Shown here piece after piece: positions 155 through 20,992 of a stretch of 32,000 nt of DNA (positions within the stretch are counted from its first letter, which is position 1; each line of letters opens with the position of its first letter). The notes under the pieces are model-generated. The model saw only the letters and a list, made by a program, of their open reading frames with translations, was not told the origin of the DNA and made no database searches. The position numbers and the translations under genes were made by a program. The DNA comes from Candidatus Iainarchaeum sp. (GTDB lineage: Archaea > Iainarchaeota > Iainarchaeia > Iainarchaeales > JAZDEL01): contig JAZDEL010000005.1 in assembly GCA_043808785.1 (NCBI GenBank), forward strand, positions 1 through 32,000, given 5' to 3'.

Positions 155-856
155 CTAAACCATTAAATTAGTTACCTGCCGATGCCGCGCCCCGCAATCG
201 CCGGGCTTGGCAAGCACCACCCTGAAAGCCCCTGGCTTGAAAATTTTCCACAGCCCGCTTGAGACAAAAACCCTAAACAGCGCGGCCTTCAGCGGGTTTT
301 TTGTTTCAGGAATTTGCGGGGGAACAAAGCGGAAATCGAAGCCTATTTTCGAAAGCATTCCCTTCAGTTCGAAATAGCTGAACTCGCGCGCAGGGCCGTA
401 GTATTCGCTGTCCGCATGCCCTCGCCCGAACCTGTTTGGCGCGGTAAAGAACGCCTTTCCCTCGGGGCGCAGGACGCGGAAGCACTCGCCCAGCGCATGC
501 TCCGCACTTCCGAAGTGCTCGAGGGCATTGAGAATAAGCACTGAGTCAAAGCTGCCCGTGCTAAAAGGCAGCGCCTCGGCAAGGCCCTGCGCAAAGAAAA
601 CATTGCGCACGCTGCTGCTTTTTTTTGATTTGGCAAGGCGCGGCATGCTGCTGTCAAACGCAATGAACATGCAGGCAGGCATTTCTGGCGCAAGCAGGGT
701 TTCAAACCAGATAAGGCCTGCCCCGACATCCAGCAGCCTGTGCTTTTTGTTTTTTTCAATCGCGAGGAAATCGGGTATGCAGCGCCACGATTTGTCGTGC
801 CGAAAAGCCGCGAGGTAATGCCCTAAGGATCTTTCAGGGGGTATTTCAGCCTGCAT
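155..856 (-). CDS. class I SAM-dependent methyltransferase (Methyltransf_11/25-like)
   Basis: 233-aa ORF. It has motif I LLDVGAG and the downstream ALPFSTGSFDSVLILNALEHF strand typical of class I methyltransferases. Its ATG overlaps the stop of the upstream gene by 11 nt (846-856). Confidence 0.85.
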   Translation of the reverse strand: MQAEIPPERSLGHYLAAFRHDKSWRCIPDFLAIEKNKKHRLLDVGAGLIWFETLLAPEMPACMFIAFDSSMPRLAKSKKSSSVRNVFFAQGLAEALPFSTGSFDSVLILNALEHFGSAEHALGECFRVLRPEGKAFFTAPNRFGRGHADSEYYGPAREFSYFELKGMLSKIGFDFRFVPPQIPETKNPLKAALFRVFVSSGLWKIFKPGAFRVVLAKPGDCGARHRQVTNLMV

Positions 857-2486
857 GCATATCCAGCCGCCTTAGGGCGATTGAAACAACTGCGCACTGC
901 ATGGCAAACCATGCAAAGAGCCCGGCGAGGCAAGCAATCTGGAGAATGCCGAAATCCGGCACAGTTGGGGAGAAGCCGAGGTGCATGAGGCAGATAAGCG
1001 CCTCCTCGAAAGGCGGAACGCCGATAGCAAACACCGAGGGCTGGAGAATCCCGAGGAATGCTATGGAAAGCGCGATAAGGACTGGCTGGATTATTGCAAA
1101 CGAAACAAGCAGCACTCTCCAGTTCCGCATTTTGTCGCCGCGCCTGCCGAAGGCAAGGAAGAGCGCGGATGAAACAACAAGGCCTGCCTCAATAAGCGCA
1201 AACTCAAGCAGGTTAATGTTCTGGGCCGCTGTTTTTTCCGCGTGCATTGCACCAAGGAGTTCGCTTGCGCGCGCGGCATCCGCTGCACGCGCACCAGAAT
1301 CGAAAGGCTGCGGCGCGCTTTCGAACTCCACAACAAGCTCCCCGCCGCTTCCGAAATCGTGCGTTAGAACTACACCCTCACTACCCGCTTCGGGAACTAT
1401 CCGTTCACCGCGGAAAACCGCGCTTTCGACAGGGGTTTTTGTCCTGAGCAGTAGCGAGAGCTGTGTGCCTTCCGCGGCTTTTTTTGTTTCAATATGTATG
1501 CGCAGTTCGCTGCCATTGAGCGATTCCGAAACAGTGGTGTTTTGCCTCGCCTCCCAGTAGTCAGCAACCTCGCCGGCTGTTGCCCACCAGAGATTTGACT
1601 TTTCCAGGTATGCGAGCGTCTTGTCCCAATCGGAGAAGTTTTTGGAGTCAAGCAGGTCTTCTGAATGGAAGAAAAAGTTAAGGACCGCGTGGCTTTTTAT
1701 GAGGTATTCCAGGTATTGCTTGTCTTCATAGCTTGAGAGGTAGATTGTTGTGGGGACAAGAACCATGCGGCTGCCTGAGGCAGTATCGTAGTAAAGCGGG
1801 TAAGGGTCGAATGTGTCGGTGTAAAATTTCCCCTCCGCAACCTTCATCATGCGCGGGCGCAGGAAGTTTCCGTAGTTCCTTTTCACAAGGATGTAGCGGA
1901 AGCCGTTTTCTGCGAGCGCGTCCGCAATGCAGTCCGTCCACATATATGCGGGCCCGCGGAAACCTGTGATAAGCGAATTGTCAAGCCCCGCTGCGGCAAA
2001 GGTCGCCCTTATCTCGGAAACAGTGCCGCCGCACCATGCGGGGTCAAGAGCCAAAGGTTGCTCGTATGCGTCGAATTCCCCAGCCCTGCGCAGCCCGTTC
2101 ATGTGCGTCAATCCGTGGTCCGCAAGCTCAATCCAGCCGCTGCCCTGAACATCAAGCACCCATTTTTTAACCTCCTCGGGCGCGGCAAGTATGCTTGTCT
2201 TCGATGTTTCGCTGCTGAAAGCCTCGCTCTTCGGCACGAATGTCGCAGTTACCTTCAGCTGCGGGTGCATGCGCTTTGTTTCGAGCATCTTCCCCCAGTA
2301 AAGCGGAATTCCCGCGGAGTTTGCGGGCTCGCCCTCGTCCCAGAGCGAATCATAGGAGGCCGTAAGGGGCGCATCCGCGCAGTGCTTCCATTCGCAGAGC
2401 CCTGCAAAAGCGGCGTTGGCAGAAGGGGGCAGCAGAACCAACAAGAACAGGGCTGTTTGCCAGATCCTCATAGTATCGCCTTGCAT
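846..2486 (-). CDS. exported polysaccharide-deacetylase-like (DUF2334/CE4-like) protein with a C-terminal polytopic membrane anchor
   Basis: 546-aa ORF. It has a signal-like N-terminus (MRIWQTALFLLVLLPPSANA) and an HGLTH His pair within a deacetylase-like central domain. It has N-x-S/T sequons (NTT, NGS, NFS). Three to four hydrophobic helices lie at the C-terminus (LVVSSALFLAF, VLLVSFAIIQPVLIALSIAFLGIL, ILQIACLAGLFAWFAM). ATG at 2471 is an alternative start. Confidence 0.7.
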   Translation of the reverse strand: MQGDTMRIWQTALFLLVLLPPSANAAFAGLCEWKHCADAPLTASYDSLWDEGEPANSAGIPLYWGKMLETKRMHPQLKVTATFVPKSEAFSSETSKTSILAAPEEVKKWVLDVQGSGWIELADHGLTHMNGLRRAGEFDAYEQPLALDPAWCGGTVSEIRATFAAAGLDNSLITGFRGPAYMWTDCIADALAENGFRYILVKRNYGNFLRPRMMKVAEGKFYTDTFDPYPLYYDTASGSRMVLVPTTIYLSSYEDKQYLEYLIKSHAVLNFFFHSEDLLDSKNFSDWDKTLAYLEKSNLWWATAGEVADYWEARQNTTVSESLNGSELRIHIETKKAAEGTQLSLLLRTKTPVESAVFRGERIVPEAGSEGVVLTHDFGSGGELVVEFESAPQPFDSGARAADAARASELLGAMHAEKTAAQNINLLEFALIEAGLVVSSALFLAFGRRGDKMRNWRVLLVSFAIIQPVLIALSIAFLGILQPSVFAIGVPPFEEALICLMHLGFSPTVPDFGILQIACLAGLFAWFAMQCAVVSIALRRLDMHAG

Positions 2487-2510
2487 CGCTTACAGGGATT
2501 TATGTGCAGT

Positions 2511-2539
2511 TAGTGATTAATATGCATAGTGATTAATAT
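2511..2539. promoter_or_regulatory. duplicated AT-rich box in a divergent promoter spacer
   Basis: TAGTGATTAATAT occurs twice (2511-2523 and 2527-2539) in the 102-bp AT-rich spacer between the divergent genes ending at 2486(-) and starting at 2589(+). Each copy contains the ATTAAT palindrome. ATGCAT palindromes lie at 2522-2527 and 2560-2565. Confidence 0.35.
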
Positions 2540-2588
2540 TCTAATTGATATAAATCCTTATGCATATACCTCGGCGAGAGGAAAAAAA

Positions 2589-3374
2589 ATGAGCTTCACG
2601 GAACGGCAACGGTTCAAGAGCAACATTGGGGAAGTAGAATACATATTCCCTTACCATTACGGCGACCTTGGCCTGGAAAAAGACGGGAGAAACATAAAAT
2701 TCATAGAATACCTGGCGCGCATCGAATTTGTAAAAAAAATCGTGGAAAAAACAGGGGCAAAAAAAGTTTTGGACGCCGGGTGCGGGGACGGAAGGTTCAT
2801 TTATGAAATGAAAAACAAGGGCATCGAACTGGTCGGGGTTGATTTCTCGGAAAAGGCAATCGGTTTCGCAAAGGCTTTTAATCCCGAAGCCAAGTTTATT
2901 GCCTGTGATTTAAAAAACCTGCAATTTAAGCGCGAGTTCGACTGTGCAGTCTGCATTGAGACATTCGAGCACATAGGCTCCGCAGACCTCCAAACTGTAC
3001 TAAAAAAACTCAATAAATCGCTGAAAGACAACGGTGTTTTGGTCCTCACTGTCCCGACTTTATCGCAAGAGCTTCCTAACGGGCACTATCAGCACTTTTC
3101 CGAAGAATCGCTGATTAAAACATTCGGCGGGGAGTTCGAGGTCGCTGCAATTTACGGGCTAGGAAAATCCGGGCTTTTGTTCTGGGTTTTTACAAAGCTG
3201 AGGTATGCGGGAAATGTATTCTGCAGTTTTGGCAGGATTGCCATAGGGTGCAGGCATTATTTCCGCTTTTTGGGCTGGTTTTACAAAAAGTTCCTGCTTG
3301 AAAGCCCTTTGCACAAAGCAAAAAAGCTTGTTGCTGTCTGCAGGAAGAAGGGGAGCAACAGGGCTGCGGAATAA
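2589..3374 (+). CDS. class I SAM-dependent methyltransferase
   Basis: ORF 2529-3374, trimmed to ATG 2589, which is preceded by GAGAGG. It has motif I VLDAGCGDGRF and the acidic strand FDCAVCIETFEHI. GC is lower than in neighbours (26/60 in sample 2641-2700). Confidence 0.85.
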   Translation: MSFTERQRFKSNIGEVEYIFPYHYGDLGLEKDGRNIKFIEYLARIEFVKKIVEKTGAKKVLDAGCGDGRFIYEMKNKGIELVGVDFSEKAIGFAKAFNPEAKFIACDLKNLQFKREFDCAVCIETFEHIGSADLQTVLKKLNKSLKDNGVLVLTVPTLSQELPNGHYQHFSEESLIKTFGGEFEVAAIYGLGKSGLLFWVFTKLRYAGNVFCSFGRIAIGCRHYFRFLGWFYKKFLLESPLHKAKKLVAVCRKKGSNRAAE

Positions 3375-3388
3375 ATCAGGTGGAAATT

Positions 3389-4519
3389 ATGAGGATTGCA
3401 AGGTTCGTAAGCGAGTTTAAGGCAGATGCCGACAGGGGCCTTATGCCAAACTACCATAAACTCTCCCTTGCGCAGCGCGCGCTGGGGAACGATGTCTCGA
3501 TTTTCGCAATGGGCGAAGCGGAAAGCGGGGGCACGGCCTTCAACGGCATTGATGTAACTTTTGTCAAAAAACCTCCGCTTGCGAGGGTTTTTTTGGGCGG
3601 GAAACTCATGGATGCGCTTTTAAAATCAGGCTTCGATGCCCGGATAGTGCATTCCACAAATCCCATGCCCTTAGGCTGGCTCTTCCCCCATTACAGGAAA
3701 AAAACAAATGCAAAATTCGCGCTTTCGCTGCACGGTTCCCTGAACCCGCTCCGCGCTCACGGGCACGGAAGCGTTTTTGCAATGCGCGACTCGCTCGAGT
3801 TTCCAGCGCTTGCGAAATTCCTTGCGCGGCGCGTGGATATCATACTCCCTGTCGCGGATTTCATAAAGCGCGAGCTGCTGGATGCGGGCGTGCCGGAACA
3901 AAAGATAAAGGTCGTGCCTAGCGGCGTTGATTTTGCCATGTTCAGCGGCACCAGGCCAAAAATGGGCGGCACAGGAAGCGAGTTTACGGTGCTTTACACA
4001 GGCAGGCTTGCCGAAACCAAGGGGATTGCGCATCTCCTGCAGGCTGCGGCGCTGCTTAAGGGCAAGGGCATAAAATTCAGGCTTGTAGGCGGCACTGCAA
4101 AAGACGGCGGGTATGCGGGCGCTGTTTCTCTTGCAGGCAGGCTCGGCGTGAACGAGTTTGTAGAGTTCCTGCCCCCTGTAAGCCACGGGGAAATGCCCGC
4201 GCTCTATGCGCAGGCTGACGCGTTTGTGCTCCCTTCATTCATGGAGGGCAGGAGCAAGGTGCTCTGGGAGGCGATGGCTGCAGGCGTGCCCGCAATAGCC
4301 ACTGCCTGTGGCGGCACGCTTGAAACAATAAGGCACGGCGAGAACGGCCTGCTTGTTCCCGTTGCGGATGCGGAGGCGATAGCGGAGGCAATAATGAGGC
4401 TAAGGAATGACGGTGCGCTTTGCAGAAGGCTTGCCAGGAGGGGGAGGGCAACTGCCAAGGGGTTTGACTGGAAAATTGTGGCGAAACAATACCTTGCCGC
4501 ATTCGAGGCGGTTTTGTGA
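3389..4519 (+). CDS. GT4-family (GT-B fold, group 1) glycosyltransferase
   Basis: ATG 3389 sits 6 nt after AGGTGG. The C-terminal domain shows LYTGRLAETKG and the E-x7-E region PSFMEGRSKVLWEAMAAGVPAIAT...ENGLLV, typical of GT4 enzymes. Confidence 0.9.
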   Translation: MRIARFVSEFKADADRGLMPNYHKLSLAQRALGNDVSIFAMGEAESGGTAFNGIDVTFVKKPPLARVFLGGKLMDALLKSGFDARIVHSTNPMPLGWLFPHYRKKTNAKFALSLHGSLNPLRAHGHGSVFAMRDSLEFPALAKFLARRVDIILPVADFIKRELLDAGVPEQKIKVVPSGVDFAMFSGTRPKMGGTGSEFTVLYTGRLAETKGIAHLLQAAALLKGKGIKFRLVGGTAKDGGYAGAVSLAGRLGVNEFVEFLPPVSHGEMPALYAQADAFVLPSFMEGRSKVLWEAMAAGVPAIATACGGTLETIRHGENGLLVPVADAEAIAEAIMRLRNDGALCRRLARRGRATAKGFDWKIVAKQYLAAFEAVL

Positions 4520-4556: not shown

Positions 4557-5768
4557 ATGAAAATATGCTATGTGGCAACAACAACGCACATAAGCAAAAA
4601 CATGGGCGATGCGCTCGGCAGCACAACCCACACAATGGGTGCTGCAAAAGCCCTGTGCAGGCACGGGCACGAGGTGATATTGGTAAGCGACATGCATGAG
4701 GGGGACGGCGCCTGCGAAACAATAGAAGGGGTAAAGGTCTACAGGCTCCTGCGCGGGATTTTTGTGAGCTCGGGCAGCGTGAAAAGGAGCGGAGCGAACT
4801 TTCTCCTTAAGAGGCTGAATCCGCTAAGCGCCTTAGTGCTGGGCATAAGAATCGCGGAAATCGTGAGAAAGGAGGGGTGCGACGCAATCCTCGAGCGCTC
4901 GCAGAGCGGCGCTGCCGGGGCGGTTGCGTCATACGTTACGGGCAGGCCGATGCTACTCGAGCTCATAGATAACCTGCAGTCGCGGCTCTCGCTCAGCCGC
5001 GCGCAAATGATTTTTACATATACCCCCGCAATGCTTGGCGGCAGGTTCGGCGAGAAGACCGTCGTGGTAGATAGCGGCTACGACGGCGAAATTTTCCGGC
5101 CGCGGAAGGCAAAGGCGGAGTATGATTTGTGCTATGCAGGCTCCTTCAAGGAGTGGGACGGCCTGGAGGATTTGGTAGAAGCGGCGGCAATTCTGCATAA
5201 CCCGAAACTGCGGTTCCTGCTTGTGGGAGATGGGGTTAATTACGCAGGCATAAGGAGGCTTGCAAAGATTAAAAACGTCTCGGGGAACTTTTGTTTCACC
5301 GGGAAGGTTGCGCTTGCGGAAGTGCCCGCCCTTATCGCGCGTGCGAGGGTTTGCATCGCGCCCTTCAACATAAGGCGCACAAAAAAAGGGGGTTTTGAAA
5401 AATACGGCTATTACTTCAGCCCGCTCAAGCTTTACGAATACATAGCGTGCGGAAAGCCGATAATCACGGCGGATTACCCGATAATACGCAAAACTTTTTC
5501 GGAGAGAAACGGGGCGCTTTTCAGGGAGGGCAGTGTCGAGGCGCTTGCCGAGGCGATAAAAAGCACGCTTGAAAGAAAGGACCTCGGCGCAATAGGCAGG
5601 CGCAACCTTGAATACTCCAAAAGGTTCACATGGTTCGAGGTTATAAGGCCGATAGCGGCGGGGATTGAGATGGTGTGCTGCGGGGCCACGGCGCATGAAA
5701 ATGTTTGCGGCAGTGCTGCCGCGGCTGGAAAGGTACGCGGCAAATCCCCCGAGGGGGCGGCAAAATGA
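4557..5768 (+). CDS. GT4-like (group 1) glycosyltransferase
   Basis: Trimmed to ATG 4557 (MKICYVATT...), the usual GT4 N-terminus. It has the motif FSPLKLYEYIACGKPIITAD...NGALF. Its stop overlaps the next ATG (ATGA at 5765-5768). Confidence 0.85.
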   Translation: MKICYVATTTHISKNMGDALGSTTHTMGAAKALCRHGHEVILVSDMHEGDGACETIEGVKVYRLLRGIFVSSGSVKRSGANFLLKRLNPLSALVLGIRIAEIVRKEGCDAILERSQSGAAGAVASYVTGRPMLLELIDNLQSRLSLSRAQMIFTYTPAMLGGRFGEKTVVVDSGYDGEIFRPRKAKAEYDLCYAGSFKEWDGLEDLVEAAAILHNPKLRFLLVGDGVNYAGIRRLAKIKNVSGNFCFTGKVALAEVPALIARARVCIAPFNIRRTKKGGFEKYGYYFSPLKLYEYIACGKPIITADYPIIRKTFSERNGALFREGSVEALAEAIKSTLERKDLGAIGRRNLEYSKRFTWFEVIRPIAAGIEMVCCGATAHENVCGSAAAAGKVRGKSPEGAAK

Positions 5769-6904
5769 AGGTCGCACAGGTCTGCCCTTTCTTCCATCCC
5801 GTGATAGGCGGCTGGGAGACCGCGGTGCTGAACATATCCAAGGGGCTGATAGAGCGCGGGCACGAGGTTACCGTCTTTACATGCGATGAAATGCACGACA
5901 AAACCAAAATACGCGAGCGCGAGGGTTTCGCGGAGGGCGTAAGGGTAAAGCGCTTTCCCGTATGGTTCAGGGTAAGCGACTTTTACAGGATATGGCCGGG
6001 CTTCATAGGCGAACTGCAAAAGGGCAAATTCGACATAGTGCACGCGCACAACTACAGGCACTTCCACTGCGACGCAAGCGCCTTCCTGAAAGGGCGCGGC
6101 AAATACAAGCTTGTGCTCAGGACAGGCATGCCTTTCCACCCGAAGAGCGCGCAGCTCGGCATGATGCGCGGAATTTACGATGCAACAATGCCGAAGCTGC
6201 TGCGCGGGAGAATAGACGGGCTGTTTGTCTACAACAATTCGGAAAAGGAAAAGTTTGAAAGGCTCGGCTTCAGCGGGGAACAAATATCCACAATACCTTA
6301 CGGCGTAGAGGATTTGTTCTTTGAGGAGGGCAACGGCGCAAAGTTCAGGAGGAGGCACTCGCTTAGGAGCAAGGTCGTGCTCTGCGCAGCAAGGCTGCAC
6401 CGCTACAAGGGAATTGAAACGCTGATAAAGGCTGCGGCATTTCTCGGCAGGGATGATGTGAGCATGGTCATAGCGGGGGACGGGGATGAAAAATATGCGC
6501 AAAGCCTCCTGCGCCTCTGCAGGAACATGGGCGTCGAAGACAGGGTTACTTTCGTCAGGGAGAGCATTTCAAGGGAGCAGCTGAGGAACGCCTATGCTGC
6601 GTGCGACCTGTTCGTGCTGCCGAGCATCTATGAATCATACGGCATTGCCCTGCTTGAGGCAATGGCGCAGGGCTGCGCGGTGCTTGCATCACGCACGGAA
6701 GGGCCTGCGGGAATAATAAGCGAAGGCGAGAACGGAATGCTCTTCGAGCCGGGCGGAAGCGCGGAACTTGCGCAAAAAATAGGAAGCCTTATAGACGACG
6801 GCACTGCCAGGGCAAGGCTCGGCAGAAACGCCAAGGCTTACGCGCAGAACCTGCGCTGGGAAAAAATCGTATGCATGATAGACGCGGAGTACGGTAAATT
6901 ATGA
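5765..6904 (+). CDS. GT4-family glycosyltransferase
   Basis: MKVAQVCPFFHPVIGGWE N-terminus. E-x7-E region PSIYESYGIALLEAMAQGCAVLASRTEGPAGIISEGENGMLF. ATGA overlaps at both ends. Confidence 0.9.
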   Translation: MKVAQVCPFFHPVIGGWETAVLNISKGLIERGHEVTVFTCDEMHDKTKIREREGFAEGVRVKRFPVWFRVSDFYRIWPGFIGELQKGKFDIVHAHNYRHFHCDASAFLKGRGKYKLVLRTGMPFHPKSAQLGMMRGIYDATMPKLLRGRIDGLFVYNNSEKEKFERLGFSGEQISTIPYGVEDLFFEEGNGAKFRRRHSLRSKVVLCAARLHRYKGIETLIKAAAFLGRDDVSMVIAGDGDEKYAQSLLRLCRNMGVEDRVTFVRESISREQLRNAYAACDLFVLPSIYESYGIALLEAMAQGCAVLASRTEGPAGIISEGENGMLFEPGGSAELAQKIGSLIDDGTARARLGRNAKAYAQNLRWEKIVCMIDAEYGKL

Positions 6905-10472: not shown

Positions 10473-10675
10473 CCGCGGGCTTTGCGGCTTCGGTACCCGC
10501 GAATAGGCGCGGAGTTTGCTGTTTTGGTGCGGGGGAATCCGCGCGGTTTTTGCGGTTGCGACCCCTGTGAACCCGCGCGGATTTTGCGGTTTCAACCCGC
10601 AAATCCGCGCAGGAACCAAGCAAATATGCGCGGGGGTTTTTTGTTTTCAGTCCCGCGAATCCGCGCAGGTTTCGC
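10473..10675. repeat. array of about six degenerate full or half copies of a GC-rich palindrome (idealised CCGCAAAATCCGCGCGGATTTTGCGG)
   Basis: Copies read by eye are as follows. 10473-10487 is CCGCGGGCTTTGCGG. 10496-10519 is CCCGCGAATAGGCGCGGAGTTTGC. 10531-10555 is GGGGGAATCCGCGCGGTTTTTGCGG. 10572-10589 is CCCGCGCGGATTTTGCGG. 10596-10613 is CCCGCAAATCCGCGCAGG. 10652-10675 is CCCGCGAATCCGCGCAGGTTTCGC. The array fills the convergent spacer between 9869-10471(+) and 10647-11645(-). Confidence 0.65.
10575..10647. terminator. hairpin plus T-tract in the convergent spacer (candidate terminator)
   Basis: GCGCGGATTTTGCGG (10575-10589) pairs with CCGCAAATCCGCGC (10597-10610), giving 14 bp with one bulge and a 7-nt loop. 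Downstream lies GCGCGGGGGTTTTTTGTTTTC (10628-10648). Confidence 0.4.
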
Positions 10676-13605: not shown

Positions 13606-13667
13606 AGTCAGGTTAGGGGCAAAACAACTAATAAATATTGCTGTCACAGATATATCTGCGTGTTGCG
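13606..13667. promoter_or_regulatory. 62-bp divergent promoter spacer with a shared AT-rich box
   Basis: AATAAATATT (13630-13639) lies 25-34 nt from the minus-strand ATG (13605) and 29-38 nt from the plus-strand ATG (13668). A second box, GATATATC, lies at 13648-13655. This spacing fits archaeal TATA boxes driving leaderless or short-leader mRNAs. Confidence 0.4.
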
Positions 13668-14630
13668 ATGGAAGATGCGATATTGGTTACTGGCGGCGCG
13701 GGCTTCATAGGAAGCACCGCAATAGCGGCGCTTTTGGGCGAGGGGGCGCGCATAGTTTGCGTGGACAATTTCAGCGACGACTACGACCCCGCGCTTAAGA
13801 GGAAAAATATAAAGCCCTTCCTCGGCAACGAAAATTTCACGCTTATCGAGGCGGATATCCGCGACAAAAAAATCATGGAAAAGGCTTTCAGGAAGGGCAA
13901 ATTCGCCAAGGTTCTGCACCTTGCGGCAAGGGCTGGCGTAAGGCAGAGCATTGCGCAGCCCGAACTATACGAGGACATCAATGTCCGCGGAACCCTGAAC
14001 ATGCTTGATGCAGCAAAGGCGCACGGAGTGAAGGATTTTGTATTTGCATCATCCTCGAGCATTTACGGCGCGACGAAAAACATCCCGTTCAAAGAAGGGG
14101 ATGGCGGCATTGCGGTTTCCCCTTATGCCGTAACCAAGAGGGCGGGCGAACTTTACTGCAGTTACTACAGCAGGGCATACGATATGAACTGCGCCTGCCT
14201 GCGCTATTTCACAGTTTACGGGCCGGGGCAGAGGCCCGCGCTTGCGATACACAAGTTCACAAGGCTTATAAGCGAGGGCATGGAAGTGCCGATTTACGGC
14301 GACGGCAGCAGCGCGCGCGATTATACTTATGTAAGCGACATAGTGCGCGGCACCCTTGCCGCGCTTGAATTTTCTGGAAAAAACCGCGGCTTCCAGATAA
14401 TAAACCTCGGCAACTCGCGCCCCGTGAACATTATGGAGCTTGTGGGGCTTATAGAGAAGGAGTTAGGAAAAAAGGCGAATGTAAGGCACGTGCAGGAGCA
14501 GGCAGGGGATGTGAAGGTTACGCATGCGGACATATCAAAGGCAGGGCGCCTGCTCGGCTACGAGCCGAAAATGAAAATCGAGGAAGGGATAGGCAAATTT
14601 GTCGAGTGGTACAATTCCGGGGGAAAGTGA
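13668..14630 (+). CDS. NAD-dependent epimerase/dehydratase (extended SDR), UDP-glucuronate 4-epimerase-like
   Basis: It has the Rossmann motif VTGGAGFIGS, DNFSDDYDPALKRKN, SSSSIYG, the catalytic YAVTK (YxxxK) and RYFTVYGPGQRP. All are typical of the CapI / UDP-GlcA 4-epimerase group. Confidence 0.85.
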   Translation: MEDAILVTGGAGFIGSTAIAALLGEGARIVCVDNFSDDYDPALKRKNIKPFLGNENFTLIEADIRDKKIMEKAFRKGKFAKVLHLAARAGVRQSIAQPELYEDINVRGTLNMLDAAKAHGVKDFVFASSSSIYGATKNIPFKEGDGGIAVSPYAVTKRAGELYCSYYSRAYDMNCACLRYFTVYGPGQRPALAIHKFTRLISEGMEVPIYGDGSSARDYTYVSDIVRGTLAALEFSGKNRGFQIINLGNSRPVNIMELVGLIEKELGKKANVRHVQEQAGDVKVTHADISKAGRLLGYEPKMKIEEGIGKFVEWYNSGGK

Positions 14631-15406
14631 TGGGCGGCAAAAGCATGGCTACGGGAAAAGGCAGGGTTGATTGGCTCGGAAAGCACTTCGAATTCAATGC
14701 CAAAAAGTACGCATACTCCTACAGCAATTGGGAGCCGCGCAGGGCCAGGATGCTTGAAATAATGCCGCAGGAAGGCATATCGCGGGCGCTTGAAGCAGGC
14801 TGCGGGAGCAACCCCCTTATAGAGGCGCTTCCTGCAGGCGTTGAAAAATTCGGCTTGGATATTGCCCGCCAGCGGCCGAAGGGCGTGAAGTTCAGGCGGC
14901 ACAATGTCGAGGACGGCATCCCTTTCGCGGACGGCTATTTCGATTTGGTTGTTGCGGGGGAAATTATAGAGCATGTTTACGAGACGGGAAGATTCCTGCG
15001 GGAATGCAACCGCGTTCTGCGCAAGGGCGGCACGCTCCTTGTCTCAACCCCTAACACGGGCTCGCTGCGCAACATAAAGGATGCAATTCTCGGAAGGCAG
15101 CCGAGGTATATGGATTACGATGCCGTGCTGCGCCCACGCGACAGCGGGCACATAAGGCACTACTCGCGCAGCGCGCTTTTCTCGCAACTGTGGGAATGCG
15201 GCTTTTCTGCCGAGCGCCTGACAAGCGACTTTGTATATTTCCCCCTGCATTTCCACATAAAACCAATAGGCTGGCTTGGAGAGAAGCTTGCGGCGCTGGT
15301 TCCGCGCTACGGGGATTCGCTTATCGTGAGGGCGAGAAAGATTTCGGATCATAACTATTGCGCTCCAGGAAAGTTTTGCGGCTTTTTGGCCCAAGGGGTT
15401 TTTTGA
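14630..15406 (+). CDS. class I SAM-dependent methyltransferase (paralogue A1)
   Basis: ATG 14630 shares one nt with the upstream TGA. It has LEAGCGSNP and FDLVVAGEIIEHVYETGRFLRECNRVLRKGGTLLVSTPN. It is a clear paralogue of 19100-19819. It carries a 21-aa Cys-containing tail (ISDHNYCAPGKFCGFLAQGVF) that the paralogue lacks. Confidence 0.85.
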   Translation: MGGKSMATGKGRVDWLGKHFEFNAKKYAYSYSNWEPRRARMLEIMPQEGISRALEAGCGSNPLIEALPAGVEKFGLDIARQRPKGVKFRRHNVEDGIPFADGYFDLVVAGEIIEHVYETGRFLRECNRVLRKGGTLLVSTPNTGSLRNIKDAILGRQPRYMDYDAVLRPRDSGHIRHYSRSALFSQLWECGFSAERLTSDFVYFPLHFHIKPIGWLGEKLAALVPRYGDSLIVRARKISDHNYCAPGKFCGFLAQGVF

Positions 15407-16287
15407 TGGCCGATAAATTAAAAAACATAAAAGAAAAAATCAGGAAAGAACTGGCGAAAAATCCTGCTTATCTGGACGGCTGTGATGTGCCGGCATTAAA
15501 AGCGGTATTGTTCGAAACCGGCTCCGCCTGCAACAGGAAATGCGCCTGGTGCCCCAATTACACTACTGACAGAGGGAACCATTTTTTGGGCGATAAAGTT
15601 TTTTATAAAGTAATGGCCGAGCTTAAGGAAATGAAATTTGAAGGGAGGGTTTCATTCAGCATGTACAATGAACCCCTGCTTGACAAAAGGCTCCCGAAAT
15701 TTATTGAACACGTGAGAAAAAACATCCCTTCGGCATATATATACCTGAACACCAACGGGGACGCACTGACCTCGGATGTCTGGAAAAGCCTTCGGGGGAA
15801 GGGGCTGGACTATGCCAACGTCTCCCAATATGACGGAAAAATAAATGAAAACATTGAAAAAATCCTGAATGGATTGGATTCGGGTGAAAGAAAGCATCTC
15901 GGCGCACATATTTTTGATTTGAACACCATTAACAACAGGGCGGGATTGATTAAATCAAGGGCGCTTGAGAAGCCTTTGCAGGAGAAGTGTTCCCGGCCTT
16001 CTTACCAATTGTGCATTAATTACAAAGGCGAAGTTGTTGTTTGCTGCAATGATTACCACGGTTCGGTTACGGTAGGCGACGCGGGCAAAGAATCAATAAA
16101 AGATTTGTGGAGTAATTATGTGTTTAAGTTCTACAGGAAGAAGTTATCGGAAGGGGACAGGGCGAGTTTGGAATTATGCAATTTGTGCGATTTGTGCTCA
16201 AGCCCTGTGCCTCCAATTTATCCTAAGCCCTCATTTGCCGCGCGGGCGCGGCGGGCGCTGCGGCAAATTATAAACAATTATAAATAA
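15406..16287 (+). CDS. radical SAM enzyme with Cys-rich twitch/SPASM-like C-terminus
   Basis: ATG 15406 shares one nt with the upstream TGA. It has CxxxCxxC (SACNRKCAWC), then KGEVVVCCND (GX4C) and CNLCDLC. GC is markedly low (22/60 in each of the samples 15421-15480 and 15601-15660). Confidence 0.9.
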   Translation: MADKLKNIKEKIRKELAKNPAYLDGCDVPALKAVLFETGSACNRKCAWCPNYTTDRGNHFLGDKVFYKVMAELKEMKFEGRVSFSMYNEPLLDKRLPKFIEHVRKNIPSAYIYLNTNGDALTSDVWKSLRGKGLDYANVSQYDGKINENIEKILNGLDSGERKHLGAHIFDLNTINNRAGLIKSRALEKPLQEKCSRPSYQLCINYKGEVVVCCNDYHGSVTVGDAGKESIKDLWSNYVFKFYRKKLSEGDRASLELCNLCDLCSSPVPPIYPKPSFAARARRALRQIINNYK

Positions 16288-16370: not shown

Positions 16371-18155
16371 ATGATTATACTTGGGTTCACGAACGGCCAC
16401 GACTGCGGAGCCTCGATTGTGAGGGACGGGAGGGTTGTTGCGGCCGTAAACGAGGAAAGGCTTAACCGCGTGAAGGTGTATTGGGGCTTCCCGTGGCTCT
16501 CAATCAGGGAGGTTATGCGCGTTGCGGGGGTTAAACCTGGGGAGATTGACGCTGCCGCATATGGCGGCCTTGCCGACGCCTGCAACATCTGGCAAGTCAA
16601 GAACCAGTCGGAGGGCCTGCAGTACCCCTCGCTGTTCGGGATGAACTGCGGAGCCGTGAATTTAATCGAAAAAAGGGCATACAGGCCGCTGCTGAGGAGG
16701 GGCATAATCAAACGTGGGAGCGCCGATGTCGCGCTCAAATATTTCCGGAAGGCGTTGCGCAGGATTGGGATTGCCGCTCCGCTTGCAATGGTCGAGCACC
16801 ATGCCGCGCATGCTGCCTCGGCATATTACAGCTCGGGGCGCGAGAATGCCACGACAATTACAATTGACGGAATCGGCGACTTGCAGTGCGCAACTGTATC
16901 AAAATGCAAAGGCACGGAAATCGAGAGGATTGCATCAACGCATTACCATGGGGCATCACCTGGTGCCTTCTATGCGAATGTTACAAATCTCCTCGGCTTC
17001 AGGCCCCTGAGGCATGAGGGCAAAGTGACAGGGCTTGCCGCCTACGGGAATCCGGAGGCAATTGAGTTCCCGTTTTTGGGCCTCGCAAACGGAGGAATGG
17101 AATTCAAGTGGGAGAATTACGAGGGCTATTTCCCGAGGCCGTTTGACAGCCTGTCGAATTTCCTTCTGTACATCAGGGGCGGCCTCGGCATTGGCGCAAC
17201 AAGCAGGGCATATCTTGATGCAATGAGGGAAAGGGCCAAAGGGGCCAAGAGGGAGGATGTTGCGGCCGCCGCACAAAAGAAATTCGAGGAGGTTATTTGC
17301 AGGCATGTGGAGAAGGTTCTCGAGGCAACCGGAAACGGGAACCTCTGCCTTGCGGGAGGGGTGTTTGCGAATGTGAAGCTCAATCAGCGCATCCATGAAA
17401 TCGACGGCGTTAGCAGCATTATGGTGCACCAGCATATGGGTGACGGCGGGCTGGCTGTCGGGGCGGCGCTGCACTATTACAGGGAGAAGCAAGGGGGAAA
17501 ATGCGTAAAGCTGCCGCATGCTTACCTGGGCCCCGAGTATGGCGGGGGAGAGATAGAGCGCGAGCTTACGGCAGCGGGGCTTGAGTATGAGGAGCACGGG
17601 GATATTGACGGAAAGGTTGGGGAGGTGCTGGCCGAGGGCGACATAGTCGCGAGGTATGGCGGCAGGATGGAGTACGGGCCCCGTGCGCTCGGAAACAGGA
17701 GCATTTTGTGCCAGCCCACCGACCCCTCCGTAAACGATTGGCTGAATAAAAAGCTGAAACGCACGGAGTTCATGCCTTTTGCGCCAGTAACGCTTGGCCG
17801 TTATGCGAAGAAGTGCTACAAAGGCATGAAGGGGGCGGAGCAGCCTGCCGAGAACATGATTATTACCTTTGGCTGCACCGACTGGCTTGCTGAGAACTGC
17901 CCTGCTGTCGTGCATGTTGACGGAACGGCACGCCCCCAGGTCATCGAGAGGGGCGTGAACCCCGGGTATTACAGGGTGCTGGAGCAATACCACAAGATTA
18001 CGGGCCTGACTACGCTCATTAATACCTCATTCAACATCCACGAAGAGCCCATAGTATGCACGCCGGGGGATGCCGTGAGGGCGTTTAAGCTCGGGCATCT
18101 GGAGTACCTGGCTATCGGGGATTTTTTGGTTCGGAACAAAAGCGATAAAAACTGA
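16371..18155 (+). CDS. NodU/CmcH-family carbamoyltransferase
   Basis: The N-terminus is MIILGFTNGHDCGASIVRDGRVVAAVNEERLNRVK. The C-terminal domain has VHVDGTARPQ and NTSFNIHEEPIVCTPGDA. Both are hallmarks of the family. Confidence 0.9.
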   Translation: MIILGFTNGHDCGASIVRDGRVVAAVNEERLNRVKVYWGFPWLSIREVMRVAGVKPGEIDAAAYGGLADACNIWQVKNQSEGLQYPSLFGMNCGAVNLIEKRAYRPLLRRGIIKRGSADVALKYFRKALRRIGIAAPLAMVEHHAAHAASAYYSSGRENATTITIDGIGDLQCATVSKCKGTEIERIASTHYHGASPGAFYANVTNLLGFRPLRHEGKVTGLAAYGNPEAIEFPFLGLANGGMEFKWENYEGYFPRPFDSLSNFLLYIRGGLGIGATSRAYLDAMRERAKGAKREDVAAAAQKKFEEVICRHVEKVLEATGNGNLCLAGGVFANVKLNQRIHEIDGVSSIMVHQHMGDGGLAVGAALHYYREKQGGKCVKLPHAYLGPEYGGGEIERELTAAGLEYEEHGDIDGKVGEVLAEGDIVARYGGRMEYGPRALGNRSILCQPTDPSVNDWLNKKLKRTEFMPFAPVTLGRYAKKCYKGMKGAEQPAENMIITFGCTDWLAENCPAVVHVDGTARPQVIERGVNPGYYRVLEQYHKITGLTTLINTSFNIHEEPIVCTPGDAVRAFKLGHLEYLAIGDFLVRNKSDKN

Positions 18156-18186: not shown

Positions 18187-18963
18187 ATGGCCGGTGAAAG
18201 CAATGAAATGCTGACTGTGGATTACAACGGAATTACTGTCTACTACAAAAAGCATCTTGACGGAGGTGGCAGTACGTTCGGGCAGGATTACATTCCCGAG
18301 GTCGGGAAGCGCTTCGGGAAGGTGGGGAGGGTGCATGAATTCTGCTGCGGGCCTGCATTCATTGGATTTTCATTGCTTGCGCACGGGCTGTGCGATTCAT
18401 TGTGCCTTTCGGACATAAACCCGAAGGCGATAGAGATGTGCAGGCTCACTGTAAAAGAAAACCGCCTGGAAGGGGTTGTTGATTGCTACGTTTCCGACTG
18501 CTTAAAGGGAATCCCGGAAACAGAGAAGTGGGATTTGGTTGTAAGCAACCCTCCGCACTTCGACGGCACTGAAGAGGATTATGCGCGTGAAATCCGCAGC
18601 TATGACCCGAAATGGAGGATACACAAGGAATTCTATGAAAATATCGGCGGCTTCCTAAACGAGGGAGCATCAGTTTATTTCTATGAAAACGGCCGGCAGT
18701 CAAACCCGGAAATATTCAAGGAAATGGCTGGGAAAGCGGGGCTTGAATTTGCCGGAATCCGCAGGCCGGGCAAGCTGGAGGTGATCCCCAGATGTCTTGC
18801 ATGGAGGCTGCCCCGAGTGCTGCACAAATTCCCGAACATCAGAAAAATGGCCGGCATTGTCATTAGAAGTGCGAACTACCCTTTCTATTTTATCCACAGC
18901 AGGAAACCTGCTGCCGGGAGCGCAAGCAACCCTTCCCATTTTGCCCGCGGCAGGAAGTATTGA
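18187..18963 (+). CDS. class I methyltransferase of the (D/N)PP(Y/F/H) amino-methyltransferase type (MTS-like)
   Basis: 258-aa ORF with motif I region VHEFCCGPAFIGF, LSDINP, and motif IV DLVVSNPPHF. Confidence 0.75.
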   Translation: MAGESNEMLTVDYNGITVYYKKHLDGGGSTFGQDYIPEVGKRFGKVGRVHEFCCGPAFIGFSLLAHGLCDSLCLSDINPKAIEMCRLTVKENRLEGVVDCYVSDCLKGIPETEKWDLVVSNPPHFDGTEEDYAREIRSYDPKWRIHKEFYENIGGFLNEGASVYFYENGRQSNPEIFKEMAGKAGLEFAGIRRPGKLEVIPRCLAWRLPRVLHKFPNIRKMAGIVIRSANYPFYFIHSRKPAAGSASNPSHFARGRKY

Positions 18964-19004
18964 TGCTTAGCATGTGCCGCACCGGGCATGAATGCGCGCA
19001 TATC

Positions 19005-19049
19005 CCGCGCTACGGTGATTCGCTTATCGTGAGGGCAAGGAAGGTTTAG
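19005..19049 (+). pseudogene. orphan 3'-terminal fragment of the A-type methyltransferase gene (PRYGDSLIVRARKV-stop)
   Basis: It is 43/45 identical, by eye alignment, to 19775-19819, the real 3' end of the gene that starts 51 nt downstream. The match includes the TAG. It is also related to 15302-15346. There is no upstream coding continuity. Confidence 0.6.
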
Positions 19050-19099
19050 CCCCGCGGCAACCCTTAAAAACAGGTCTGGGCAAATTCTATCGGTCGGAC

Positions 19100-19819
19100 A
19101 TGGGCAAAAAAAACTGCGAAAGCCAAAAGCCGTACTGGCTGGATGCGCACTTTGCATTCAACAGAGAGGGGCATACAAGAATCCCCCCTTACTCAAAATC
19201 CGGCATGCACGACGTGCTTCTCTACAGTAGGCTTATAGACCTGCTGCCACAAGACGGTATTTCAAAGGCGTTCGAGATAGGCTACGGGAATAACCCTATT
19301 ATAAGCTTCCTGCCAAGTGGCGTAGAAAAGTTTGGAATAGATATGGCTGACATAAAGCCAGATGGCATTAATGTCATAAGGCACAATGTAGAGGACGGCC
19401 TGCCGTTCCAGAAAGGCTGCTTCGAGCTTGTGGTTGCCTGCGAAACCATAGAACACATATATGAAACAGGCAACTTCCTGCGGGAATGCAACCGCGTGCT
19501 GCGAAAGGGCGGCACGCTGGTTTTGTCTACGCCCAACATTGCTTCGCTGCGCAATATAGCAAGATGCATACGTGGCAGGCAGCTGAAATTCATGGGATAT
19601 GATGTGAGAAGCGCAGATGGGCACATAAGGTGCTACACCCGCGGCTCGCTCTTCAGGCAGCTCGATGAATGCGGGTTTTCAGTAGAAAAGTTCACAAGCA
19701 CCAAAATGTACCTGCCTTTGCACTTCCATATAAAGCCCATAGGCTGGCTTGGCACTAAACTCGCGCCCCTTCTTCCGCGCTACGGGGATTCGCTTATCGT
19801 GAGGGCGAGGAAGGTTTAG
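19100..19819 (+). CDS. class I SAM-dependent methyltransferase (paralogue A2)
   Basis: 239-aa ORF. It has FELVVACETIEHIYETGNFLRECNRVLRKGGTLVLSTPN and LHFHIKPIGWLG...PRYGDSLIVRARKV, near-identical in blocks to 14630-15406. Confidence 0.85.
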   Translation: MGKKNCESQKPYWLDAHFAFNREGHTRIPPYSKSGMHDVLLYSRLIDLLPQDGISKAFEIGYGNNPIISFLPSGVEKFGIDMADIKPDGINVIRHNVEDGLPFQKGCFELVVACETIEHIYETGNFLRECNRVLRKGGTLVLSTPNIASLRNIARCIRGRQLKFMGYDVRSADGHIRCYTRGSLFRQLDECGFSVEKFTSTKMYLPLHFHIKPIGWLGTKLAPLLPRYGDSLIVRARKV

Positions 19820-19834
19820 TGCCGCTTTGGCGCC

Positions 19835-20860
19835 TTACTTCAGGGCACCGCAGCAATAAACCGTTCTGCACGGCCCGCCTATTTTTCCGAACTCCCGCCT
19901 TTCAAGCATGCCTATCAGCCGTTTCCTCTTCTCTGATGAATATATCCGATCAATTGACCGCTCCCAAATATTGCCGAGAGCAAGCTCGTTGTTCGAATCG
20001 AGACAGCAGGCATACCATGTTCCATCCGGAGCTATGAATGCAACCGAATGCATCTTCTCGAGGCGCGGACACGAGTAACCGCACAGGTCCGCGCTAAGGT
20101 GTGCCGCCGCATCCCTCTCAGCCCACCCGAAGACAGCACTCCTAAGAACCATATCGCGCGGGGCAAGCAGCCTGTTCAGGGGAAGCGCAAAAACCCGTGC
20201 CTTTTCTGCAGTTTGCCTGCTTATGCCCAAACGCTTCGCAAGGAGAAGGCAGTGCATCTTCATTTTTATTTCTGCAAAATCGTCGGGCACCTCAGCAAGG
20301 CGTGCGTCGCGCATCTTTGCAGGGTAAAACCCGAAAGCGCCGTGAATTGAATGTATGTAATCGTGCAAAGTCACCACATGTATGCGCAGCGGCACCGCAC
20401 TTTTCAGTTCGCGCCTCAGCCCGAGAAAAGCCTCGAGGTTGCGCATCGTGTTTTCAAGCGGAATGCGCTTTACATTGAAGTAGTTTTCCGCATTTGCGCC
20501 GTCAATGTTGCAGTGCACCTTGTCTATAAGCCCTTCCTCAAGGATTGTGCGCGACTTTTCTTCGGTCAGGTTCTGGAAATTCGTGAAAACGCCTGTTTCA
20601 ATCCACGGGCATTCCGCCTTTATGTGCCTCGCTATTTCGATGAAGCGCGGGTTCAGAAAGGCGTCGCCGTTCTCGCCGAGCTGCATATGCGTCACGCTGT
20701 GCCGAGCGCGGAATTCCGGGGAGGAAAGCTCGGAGGTTATTTTTTTCGCAAGGCCGAGGGGCATAATCTTTTCCTTTATCTTCGCGCCCCGGTCCCTTGC
20801 GCAAAAAATGCAGTCTGCTCCGCATGCTAAGGAAAGCGAAAGGTTTACCGCAGTGAGCAT
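19835..20860 (-). CDS. radical SAM enzyme with twitch/SPASM-like C-terminus
   Basis: It has CxxxCxxC (LACGADCIFC) close to the N-terminus. The C-terminal part has DGTWYACCLD (GX4C) and GGPCRTVYCCG. The track ORF starts at a TTG (20869). ATG at 20860 is preferred. It is convergent with 19100-19819 with only a 15-nt gap. Confidence 0.85.
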   Translation of the reverse strand: MLTAVNLSLSLACGADCIFCARDRGAKIKEKIMPLGLAKKITSELSSPEFRARHSVTHMQLGENGDAFLNPRFIEIARHIKAECPWIETGVFTNFQNLTEEKSRTILEEGLIDKVHCNIDGANAENYFNVKRIPLENTMRNLEAFLGLRRELKSAVPLRIHVVTLHDYIHSIHGAFGFYPAKMRDARLAEVPDDFAEIKMKMHCLLLAKRLGISRQTAEKARVFALPLNRLLAPRDMVLRSAVFGWAERDAAAHLSADLCGYSCPRLEKMHSVAFIAPDGTWYACCLDSNNELALGNIWERSIDRIYSSEKRKRLIGMLERREFGKIGGPCRTVYCCGALK

Positions 20861-20992
20861 GTTTACCAATTCAAATTTGGGGCGGATGTGTTAAAAAACA
20901 AGCGCTAGGGTTAGTGCGAAAGTTTGTGCACGCCGCACCCCCTGCAATTTGCGCGAAAATAACGCCCGCGTGCGCGCCTGTTCCCGCGCGTT

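Follow-up and report, generated by a model that had tools for sequence, protein, structure and literature searches.

The window analysed here, 32,000 nucleotides of the archaeon Candidatus Iainarchaeum sp. (assembly GCA_043808785.1, contig JAZDEL010000005.1, positions 1 to 32,000 of the forward strand), carries between positions 155 and 20869 a glycan biosynthesis island in which seven class I S-adenosylmethionine (SAM) methyltransferase (MT) domains are found together with six glycosyltransferases (GTs), all of family GT4. We propose, with a probability of roughly 0.55, that the enzymes of the island assemble and tailor, within the cytoplasm, a hexa- or heptasaccharide of the cell surface, whose priming, flipping and transfer are encoded elsewhere in the genome. 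Glycan biosynthesis islands are a known kind of locus, and the composition of this one is a real outlier; by itself it does not show a new kind of pathway. The window belongs to a contig of 38.5 kb, and the absences reported below hold for these 32 kb.

The open reading frames (ORFs) of the window were listed mechanically and translated, and the proteins were matched to Pfam, NCBIfam and the sequences of the PDB and scanned for hydropathy. Nineteen genes are packed into the island (Table 1). According to Pfam they include six GT4 domains, seven class I MT domains, three radical SAM enzymes with SPASM domains, one carbamoyltransferase, one CE4 deacetylase and one extended short-chain dehydrogenase/reductase (SDR). 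This agrees with the inventory of a first-pass annotation that had been made from the nucleotide sequence. The six GT4 domains and all seven MT calls, one of them fused to a GT4 and one of them weak (MT4), were recovered as such by Pfam. The carbamoyltransferase, the CE4 deacetylase, the three radical SAM enzymes and the SDR resembling UDP-glucuronic acid (UDP-GlcA) 4-epimerases are borne out as well. The locus matches no characterised pathway, and its one close whole-locus relative, a contig of the Logan collection described below, is uncharacterised as well. The order of the genes, and the fact that neighbours are separated by very little or overlap, suggest about four transcription units, which run from 2486 to 155 (minus strand), 2529 to 10471 (plus), 13647 to 10647 (minus) and 13638 to 19819 (plus). 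The gene from 20869 to 19835 (minus) is convergent with the end of the last unit.

Table 1. Genes of the island and one gene remnant in order of position. Scores are Pfam bit scores; identities are to the related Logan contig.
Feature	Coordinates	Strand	Characteristics
MT1	155..856	-	PF08241 55 bits, PF13649 47.9 bits; motif I LLDVGAG
Orphan membrane-anchored protein, 546 aa	846..2486	-	signal-like N-terminus, C-terminal membrane helices
MT2	2529..3374	+	PF13649 67 bits, PF08241 65 bits; opens the plus-strand run 2529-10471
GT4a	3380..4519	+	PF00534 124.7 bits, PF13439 61 bits; ExxxxxxxE motif; 57% identity
GT4b	4557..5768	+	PF13692 77 bits, PF00534 73.9 bits; 66% identity
GT4c	5765..6904	+	PF00534 133.6 bits; 83% identity
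GT4d-MT3 fusion	6901..8727	+	PF00534 93.6 bits (residues 1-371); PF13649 71 bits (residues 407-570)
GT4e	8724..9869	+	PF13692 89 bits, PF00534 85.5 bits; 62% identity
MT4	9866..10471	+	PF08241 33.4 bits (cut-off 21), profile positions 19-88 only; no NCBIfam match
rSAM1 (radical SAM)	10647..11645	-	PF04055 72.5 bits, PF13186 48.9 bits; CNLRCEFC motif; SPASM/twitch-type C-terminal Cys domain
GT4f	11642..12748	-	PF00534 112.3 bits; 83% identity
CE4 polysaccharide deacetylase	12745..13647	-	PF01522 58.9 bits; 71% identity
Extended SDR, nucleotide-sugar 4-epimerase, UDP-GlcA 4-epimerase-like	13638..14630	+	PF01370 206.6 bits
MT5	14606..15406	+	PF13489 54.6 bits
rSAM2 (radical SAM)	15358..16287	+	PF13186 40 bits, PF04055 39.4 bits
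O-carbamoyltransferase, NodU/CmcH/TobZ type, two-domain	16371..18155	+	PF16861 186.6 bits, PF02543 131.1 bits
MT6	18187..18963	+	MTS type, PF05175 46.4 bits; NPPH motif; 84% identity
3'-terminal remnant of a gene of the MT5/MT7 type ('eighth' MT)	19005..19055	+	translation ends in PRYGDSLIVRARKV followed by a stop codon
MT7	19100..19819	+	PF13489 42.8 bits, PF08241 42 bits
rSAM3 (radical SAM)	19835..20869	-	PF04055 35.5 bits, PF13186 33.5 bits; CGADCIFC motif; 73% identity

The excess of MTs was compared with other loci in two rough controls. For the first, hidden Markov models (HMMs) seeded on the MT, GT4 and radical SAM proteins of the window were iterated over the ORFs of 163 loci, of which the 54 with at least 20 kb (about 21.7 kb), centred on homologous carbamoyltransferases, were used for counting; the control is rough in that its HMMs were built from the window's own proteins. 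No MT was counted in 20 of the 54 loci, one in 19, two in 11, three in one and four in three (median 1), so that the maximum is four. The numbers of GT4s in these loci range from 0 to 5, while the window and the Logan contig each contain seven MTs and six GT4s. The second control, in which Pfam was applied to 108 ORFs of seven archaeal carbamoyltransferase loci (about 131 kb), yielded 26 GTs (11 GT2, 10 PMT_2 proteins of the GT-C type and 5 GT4) and four class I MTs. A ratio of 7:6 in the window thus stands against 4:26 in the archaeal loci, and the view that more MTs than GTs are unusual for a surface-glycan locus is supported. Among the nine radical SAM proteins of the same archaeal loci seven carry a B12-binding domain (PF02310). 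In comparison to the other loci, the window has many more MTs, GTs of family GT4 only, without GT2 or GT-C, and radical SAM enzymes that are independent of B12. Such an architecture is nevertheless not unique, as it is also seen on the Logan contig and, more loosely, at a locus from Parcubacteria.

Genes for priming, flipping or transfer, which the first-pass annotation did not see in the island, are absent from the whole window, and the same is true for the 22.8-kb Logan contig. Among the ORFs of the window no priming transferase (PF00953, PF02397), no Wzx (PF01943/PF13440), no Wzy or other polymerase, no initiating phosphoglycosyl transferase, no GT2, no GT-C and no STT3/AglB could be identified by Pfam. 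PF00535, which was considered together with PF00953 and PF02397 as a possible dolichol phosphate (Dol-P) priming enzyme, is likewise missing from the window, and PF02516 (AglB/STT3) was found neither among the ORFs of the window nor on the contig of the relative. The multi-spanning proteins of the window are a DUF63 protein, an SdpI/DUF1648 protein and the C-terminus of the orphan protein 846-2486, and no others. Apart from this orphan, the hydropathy scan did not find membrane-like segments in the enzymes of the island; the sole apparent exception, a segment in the SDR, is its Rossmann N-terminus. The island encodes cytoplasmic chemistry and one predicted outward-facing enzyme. The lack of membrane steps in 32 kb alone is no evidence for an unconventional pathway. 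The Agl5-Agl15 cluster for the low-salt glycan of Haloferax also lacks an oligosaccharyltransferase of its own and functions without AglB (PMC3871713).

All GTs of the island belong indeed to one family, and the six proteins score with 74-134 bits against Glycos_transf_1. They are mutually distant, with 22-32% identity. The ORF of GT4b opens at 4407, and the ATG at 4557 is its probable start. The best named relative of GT4c is the archaeal N-glycan transferase Agl16 (NF041010), which aligns over the full length with 116 bits against a cut-off of 575 bits, and GT4a and GT4e likewise resemble Agl16 in NCBIfam. Sub-threshold NCBIfam matches were also obtained to GT4s acting on lipids, namely GlcNAc-phosphatidylglycerol synthase, alpha-monoglucosyl-diacylglycerol synthase and IagA/BgsA of the lipoteichoic acid glycolipid anchor, but at 35-59 bits against cut-offs of 400-480 bits these remain below the scores to Agl16, EpsE and MshA. 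The similarity of GT4c to SdgA is weak (41 bits, cut-off 800 bits). GT4d and MT3 form one in-frame ORF in the window, whereas on the Logan contig (12824-14658) each is a gene of its own, and the two overlap at an ATGA; the fusion is due to the absence of about 14 nt at the junction, by which the stop codon was removed. A fusion of this Rosetta-stone type connects both activities and suggests a coupling between the assembly of the chain and at least one of its methylations.

MT4 is the weakest of the MT calls and possibly impaired in SAM binding, as judged from its glycine loop, which is degenerate (GASAN in comparison to GGGAY in the 58%-identical orthologue of the Logan contig). MT5 and MT7 are paralogues with 59% amino-acid identity. 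The 51-nt remnant at 19005-19055 is 92% identical to 19775-19825, the 3' end of MT7, and 80% identical to 15302-15352, the 3' end of MT5, and accounts for the fragment of an eighth MT that had been noted before.

The motif VVSNPPHFDG of MT6 aligns with the NPPH of PDB entry 9l4q and conforms to the pattern (D/N)PP(Y/F/W/H); the two proteins match with an E-value of 3.4e-50, about half of the aligned residues being identical. The entry is named 'Methyltransferase small domain-containing protein', which gives no function, and no paper on it was found in a literature search. The family is widespread (775 proteins at E <= 1e-10). Its members go under the names 'predicted RNA methylase' and 'methylase of polypeptide chain release factors' and no others, and the function appears to be undescribed. 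Motifs of the NPPH type are typical of nitrogen-acting methyltransferases, as in the HemK, RsmC and N6-adenine families. MT6 is a predicted N-methyltransferase, for which the amine freed by the cytoplasmic CE4 deacetylase, or the carbamoyl nitrogen, is a plausible acceptor. In the window as well as on the Logan contig MT6 lies directly downstream of the carbamoyltransferase. Homologues of MT6 were not found at 160 other carbamoyltransferase loci, and at one locus from Parcubacteria a homologue is located about 2.5 kb from the carbamoyltransferase; the pairing is therefore not general. The nearest named relative of MT6 comes from Candidatus Micrarchaeota (62%, partial). A contig of this phylum with an MT6 homologue (GCA_028867115.1, JAGWGY010000024.1, 1706-3271) also encodes a 521-aa GT2 of the processive type, assigned to the Pfam families Glyco_tranf_2_3/Glyco_transf_21, and an SDR. 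Micrarchaeota thus do have membrane GT2 synthases, though the window has none.

The best defined of the three radical SAM enzymes is rSAM2, which matches BtrN (PDB 4m7t) with an E-value of 2.1e-31, residues 50-281 aligning with residues 28-259 of 270. Its CNRKCAWC falls on the CNRTCWYC of BtrN (CX3CX2C), and the C-terminal cysteines of the auxiliary cluster also align. rSAM2 is thus a full-length homologue of BtrN and is predicted to belong to the twitch-type secondary-alcohol dehydrogenases. BtrN itself is a twitch-domain radical SAM dehydrogenase which oxidises a secondary alcohol of 2-deoxy-scyllo-inosamine (PMC10337720, PMC9012708). The match of rSAM3 to BtrN is weak (E 0.007). For rSAM1, which shows 56% identity to its counterpart on the Logan contig and 45% to a Micrarchaeota protein as its nearest named relative, the solved structures that match best are those of DesII, BtrN and cytosylglucuronate decarboxylase (BlsE), all of which act on sugars. 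The three proteins match PF04055 and PF13186 only, and none of them contains the N-terminal B12-binding domain (PF02310) that class B (cobalamin-dependent) C-methyltransferases carry in fusion with the radical SAM core. C-methylation by these enzymes was therefore rejected, given this absence and the likeness of rSAM2 to BtrN; the supported class of reactions for all three would be oxidation, epimerisation, deamination or decarboxylation of a sugar. Of the glycan predicted in the first-pass annotation, O- and N-methyl groups, carbamoylation, de-N-acetylation and hexuronic acid are consistent with the families present, while the predicted C-methylation is not supported.

The closest solved relatives of the carbamoyltransferase are NovN, GdmN and TobZ (E 1e-68 to 1e-57 in the PDB). 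It is 79% identical to the protein of the Logan contig and otherwise at most 45-50% identical to proteins from species-representative genomes and JGI metagenomes. The scan of genomes revealed 80 loci with up to 45% identity, none of them with synteny beyond generic GT4 and SDR genes. In the JGI metagenomes a scan with a two-sequence alignment gave nothing, and a second scan found relatives with up to 50% identity. The CE4 deacetylase contains no membrane-like or signal-like hydrophobic segment and is therefore predicted to be cytoplasmic. The best solved relatives of the SDR are 5u4q (E 7e-66) and the UDP-GlcA 4-epimerase from Bacillus (6zl6/6zld, E 2e-54), and it also matches MoeE5, the UDP-GlcA 4-epimerase of moenomycin biosynthesis (E 7.5e-48). 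Since UDP-GlcA 4-epimerases are among these relatives, a hexuronic acid in the product is supported.

The orphan protein 846-2486 had been described as exported and deacetylase-like. No match above the Pfam threshold, in NCBIfam or in the sequences of the PDB was found for it; below the threshold there is one to GH57 at E 0.016. A word-based homologue search returned the protein itself alone. An exhaustive HMMER search revealed 16 remote homologues among 1.84 billion representatives, four of them at E < 1e-30; six of the 16 match DUF2334 and three match Polysacc_deac_1 (CE4). D41, H119 and H123 (Asp plus HxxxH) are invariant in the alignment. The AlphaFold model (pLDDT 79.6, pTM 0.77) shows a (beta/alpha)-barrel of the CE4/GH57 fold together with a beta-sandwich, for which Foldseek retrieved GH57 enzymes, PelA, ArnD and CE4 deacetylases. 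The signal-like N-terminus and the C-terminal membrane helices lead to the prediction that the catalytic domain faces outward. Taken together, homologues, invariant residues, model and topology make the earlier description a fair one, and we regard the protein as a predicted deacetylase-like enzyme, the model being compatible with a GH57-type glycosidase as well. MT1 overlaps its stop by 11 nt, and both genes are therefore probably co-transcribed. The Logan contig ends before the position that would match this gene.

Only one close relative of the island was found, a 22.8-kb Logan contig from SRR22387960, on which the genes and their arrangement are those of the island, the proteins being 54-84% identical. 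Downstream both loci share the genes for p375, p212, a Nudix protein, p155, a DUF357 protein and the diphthine synthase Dph5; most of the flanking genes are 73-90% identical (p375 62%), and the genes of the island have diverged further than these. Because the island and its neighbours are shared, the island represents a stable chromosomal feature of the lineage and not an assembly artefact. Between the SDR and the carbamoyltransferase the window contains MT5 and rSAM2, whereas the Logan contig lacks rSAM2 and retains an MT remnant of 103 aa only (6707-7018), which is similar to the N-terminus of MT5 and MT7. A remnant of 59 residues at 1985-2161 of that contig is 80% identical to the N-terminus of rSAM3. 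Two MT5/7 paralogues are also encoded on the contig, and a further methyltransferase lies there between GT4a and GT4b. The remnants in both loci indicate repeated duplication and decay of MT and radical SAM modules, a turnover that would be expected for a surface-glycan locus under diversifying pressure. The Parcubacteria locus mentioned above (GCA_016211955.1, JACRHX010000043.1, 384-16503), which belongs to the bacterial candidate phyla radiation, contains four MTs, one of them the MT6 homologue (48% identity), two GT2s, one GT4, an SDR, a carbamoyltransferase followed by a gene resembling ornithine carbamoyltransferase, and a DegT aminotransferase, and it is without a SPASM radical SAM enzyme. 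Among ultra-small episymbionts, glycan loci rich in MTs may be a feature that recurs.

The flank from 21 to 32 kb encodes the diphthine synthase (TIGR00522, 204 bits against a cut-off of 114 bits), which exceeds its equivalog cut-off and thereby points to an archaeal host, a tRNA methyltransferase resembling Trm5b (below the NCBIfam cut-off), the DUF63 and DUF357 proteins and a PIN protein. Judged by the nearest named relatives of rSAM1 and MT6, the host would probably fall in a Micrarchaeota-like DPANN lineage. Just downstream of the island, three predicted surface proteins are encoded at 21101-23001 and 24924-25391 (minus strand). A signal-like N-terminus is present in p375, which is rich in Ala, Glu and Lys, and in p212, which also has a C-terminal membrane anchor; the anchor of p155 is N-terminal. 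The counterparts of p212 and p155 on the Logan contig are 88-90% identical to them, which is above any enzyme of the island. All three carry 2-4 N-x-S/T sequons each and are therefore candidate acceptors of the glycan. Nowhere in the window is the AT skew higher than in the region 23600-25000 (0.23), whose ORFs are short or unsupported with the exception of a basic protein of 109 aa with a weak helix-turn-helix match (Sigma70_r4, E 0.001). Neither this region nor the rest of the window contains a tRNA or a member of an Rfam family. At the other end, positions 1-78 (minus strand) encode the first 26 residues (VTFYAGLDVHKEHINAAVVDSRGKIV) of a transposase of the IS110 type, the remainder of which lies outside the window; they match positions 1-22 of the PF01548 profile with E 0.0018, a match that stays below the cut-off on account of its shortness. 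An insertion sequence may thus mark the left border of the island. With GC contents of 0.50-0.57 (island) and 0.50-0.54 (flank), the base composition gives no clear signal of transfer. A role in anti-phage defence, raised by matches to PF20706 (GT4-conflict), was rejected as the PADLOC matches are of superfamily level only (radical SAM core to pVip with 63 bits, MT domain to mad2 with 30-43 bits, the GT4s none).

With all steps assigned by family membership, the proposed pathway would proceed as follows. GT4s, SAM enzymes and radical SAM enzymes depend on cytoplasmic cofactors. The six soluble GT4s would add sugars from nucleotide-sugar donors one after the other to an oligosaccharide at the inner face of the membrane, with the SDR providing a 4-epimerised hexuronic acid, for example as UDP-galacturonic acid. 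The cytoplasmic CE4 enzyme would take off an N-acetyl group, the TobZ/NodU-type enzyme would attach an O-carbamoyl group, and six or seven SAM methyltransferases would form O-methyl ethers or esters, with MT6 N-methylating the freed amine or the carbamoyl nitrogen. The three B12-independent radical SAM enzymes would oxidise, epimerise or deoxygenate sugar carbons without methylating them. Priming of the acceptor, translocation and transfer to protein or lipid would be carried out by membrane proteins encoded elsewhere, and the membrane-anchored protein of the CE4/GH57 fold may trim the glycan after export. The locus would evolve fast through gain, loss and decay of its MT and radical SAM modules. 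Precedents exist for parts of this scheme: in the Agl system the soluble SAM enzyme AglP methylates a lipid-linked N-glycan (PMC3871713), and in Micrarchaeota the S-layer is glycosylated and genes for N-glycosylation are expressed (bioRxiv 10.1101/2021.04.28.441871).

Several observations weigh against this proposal. The link to a lipid carrier is drawn by analogy, with the priming transferase, the flippase and AglB unseen in the window and on the Logan contig, and the fact that the archaeal comparator loci have GT2 and GT-C (PMT_2) genes nearby, and the window none, is a real difference. No protein of the island reaches an NCBIfam equivalog cut-off. Judging from its glycine loop, MT4 may be inactive. 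For the orphan protein the overlap with MT1 is the sole tie to the island, so that a functional link would be one of adjacency alone. Finally, the wider family of rSAM1 in Chitinophagaceae (about 33% identity) adjoins an AI-2E transporter and an SLT lytic transglycosylase, which is not a glycan context. Guilt by association was dropped for rSAM1, as the Chitinophagaceae neighbourhood is uninformative on its function in the island.

The absence of carrier machinery also invites the broader view that the island is a complete pathway independent of a lipid carrier, in which soluble GT4s build a polymethylated, carbamoylated glycan on its final acceptor, be it a lipid, a protein or, as for the polymethylated polysaccharides of mycobacteria, none, and BtrN-type enzymes tailor it. 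We consider this unlikely; if true, an ultra-small symbiotic archaeon would make an unusually hydrophobic glycan with no dolichol, flippase or AglB. As for lipid as the acceptor, one GT4 would glycosylate a membrane lipid directly, as GT4s of the PimA and monoglucosyl-diacylglycerol synthase types do, the others would extend this glycolipid or lipoglycan and the tailoring enzymes would decorate it. The lack of GTs other than GT4 and of priming and oligosaccharyltransferase genes at both loci, the soluble or peripheral nature of all enzymes and the sub-threshold matches to lipid-acting GT4s are compatible with such a scheme. However, those matches are weaker than the ones to Agl16, EpsE and MshA, and a flippase would still be required and is not seen, so that this version is improbable too. 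A protein acceptor would mean that a GT4 primes Ser/Thr in the cytoplasm before export, as GtfA and SdgA/SdgB do on the serine-rich adhesins of bacteria, with p375 and p212 as candidate substrates. The missing carrier machinery, the surface proteins encoded immediately downstream in an arrangement kept on the Logan contig and the weak GT4c-SdgA match can be cited in its favour, but that match lies far below the cut-off, neither p375 nor p212 is a Ser-rich repeat protein, and we know of no such system in archaea. We therefore give this possibility very little weight.

Export would not be needed at all if the product were a cytoplasmic polymethylated polysaccharide, an archaeal analogue of the methylglucose lipopolysaccharides (MGLP) and methylmannose polysaccharides (MMP) of mycobacteria. 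The excess of MTs, the soluble GT4s and the lack of carrier and export genes would suit such a product, and the mycobacterial cluster Rv3030-Rv3037c also unites a glucosyltransferase with two SAM methyltransferases and leads to cytoplasmic products (PMC2674218). On the other hand, six GT4s with 22-32% identity to each other point to a defined hetero-oligosaccharide and not to a homopolymer, an outward orientation is predicted for the protein of the GH57/CE4 fold, the island adjoins predicted surface proteins, and neither a GpgS-type (GT81) initiator nor an acyltransferase was found in the window. We consider such a product quite improbable. Even less is to be said for a small glycosylated natural product of the aminoglycoside or nucleoside type in place of an envelope glycan. 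It is suggested by the closest solved relatives, which are the antibiotic tailoring enzymes BtrN, TobZ/NovN/GdmN, DesII, BlsE and MoeE5, yet this pattern largely mirrors which enzymes were crystallised. Moreover, six GTs far exceed the need, and the window contains no cyclitol synthase, aminotransferase, aglycone pathway, resistance gene or exporter. Over these alternatives a defined surface oligosaccharide is favoured by the mutual distance of the six GT4s, by the CE4/GH57 protein with its predicted outward orientation and by the predicted surface proteins encoded nearby.

If the surface oligosaccharide proposed here is made, the glycan on the surface of this lineage would rank among the most heavily methylated that have been inferred from gene clusters of any kind, and it would in addition bear carbamoyl groups, lack part of its N-acetyl groups and carry modifications made by radical chemistry. 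BtrN-type dehydrogenases, which to our knowledge have been characterised in antibiotic pathways only, would be placed in the biosynthesis of an envelope glycan, and the widespread MTS family of MT6 and 9l4q would gain a candidate role in N-methylation beside carbamoylation. DPANN archaea live attached to their hosts, and their surface glycans are probable determinants of the host interaction; the fast turnover of modules between the window and the Logan contig fits such a role.

Known systems share parts of the island. The rhizobial enzymes NodB, NodS and NodU perform de-N-acetylation, N-methylation of the freed amine and O-carbamoylation on an amino-sugar oligomer, all in the cytoplasm. The same three chemistries are predicted for the island, and NodU is the best NCBIfam match of its carbamoyltransferase. 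The scores are, however, far from equivalog level for NodU (133.8 against 1000 bits) and NodB (21.3 against 240 bits) and below it for NodS (17.5 against 24 bits), and in contrast to the Nod-factor set, which has the chitin-oligomer synthase NodC (GT2), the backbone enzymes of the island are GT4s. In the Pgl system of Campylobacter the GT4s PglA, PglJ and PglH build a lipid-linked heptasaccharide in the cytoplasm. Serial GT4s are common to both, and sub-threshold matches to PglJ and PglH are found in the island. Pgl clusters include PglC for priming, the flippase PglK and the oligosaccharyltransferase PglB, and they are without methyltransferases, a carbamoyltransferase or radical SAM enzymes. 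From the systems of BtrN, DesII and BlsE the island differs in that genes of the butirosin pathway are absent and the context is an archaeal glycan island. The locus of the Logan contig, the nearest of all, differs in its separate GT4 and MT genes, in the absence of MT5 and rSAM2 and in its extra MT5/7 paralogues.

The mycobacterial MGLP cluster Rv3030-Rv3037c consists of an alpha-1,4-glucosyltransferase, two SAM methyltransferases and a branching enzyme (PMC2674218). A GT4-type transferase, several SAM methyltransferases and an enzyme of the GH57 fold are shared between the MGLP/MMP systems and the island, and the MGLP/MMP product is cytoplasmic and made without a lipid carrier (PMC2674218, PMC9883506). 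The likeness is one of gene classes; the island differs in its six divergent GT4s and in a GH57/CE4 protein predicted to face outward, and it has neither GpgS nor an acyltransferase. With the archaeal Agl systems (AglG, AglI, AglE and AglP of Haloferax volcanii; Agl16 of Sulfolobus) the island has in common soluble or peripheral GTs and sugar-processing enzymes at the cytoplasmic face, as well as the full-length similarity of GT4c to Agl16. A SAM methyltransferase is also part of the Agl system, where AglP acts on a hexuronic acid of the lipid-linked glycan (PMC3871713). In contrast to these systems, AglB, a Dol-P priming enzyme and a flippase of the AglR/Agl15 type are not in view, and the island has seven methyltransferases in place of one and adds a carbamoyltransferase, a CE4 deacetylase and three radical SAM enzymes.

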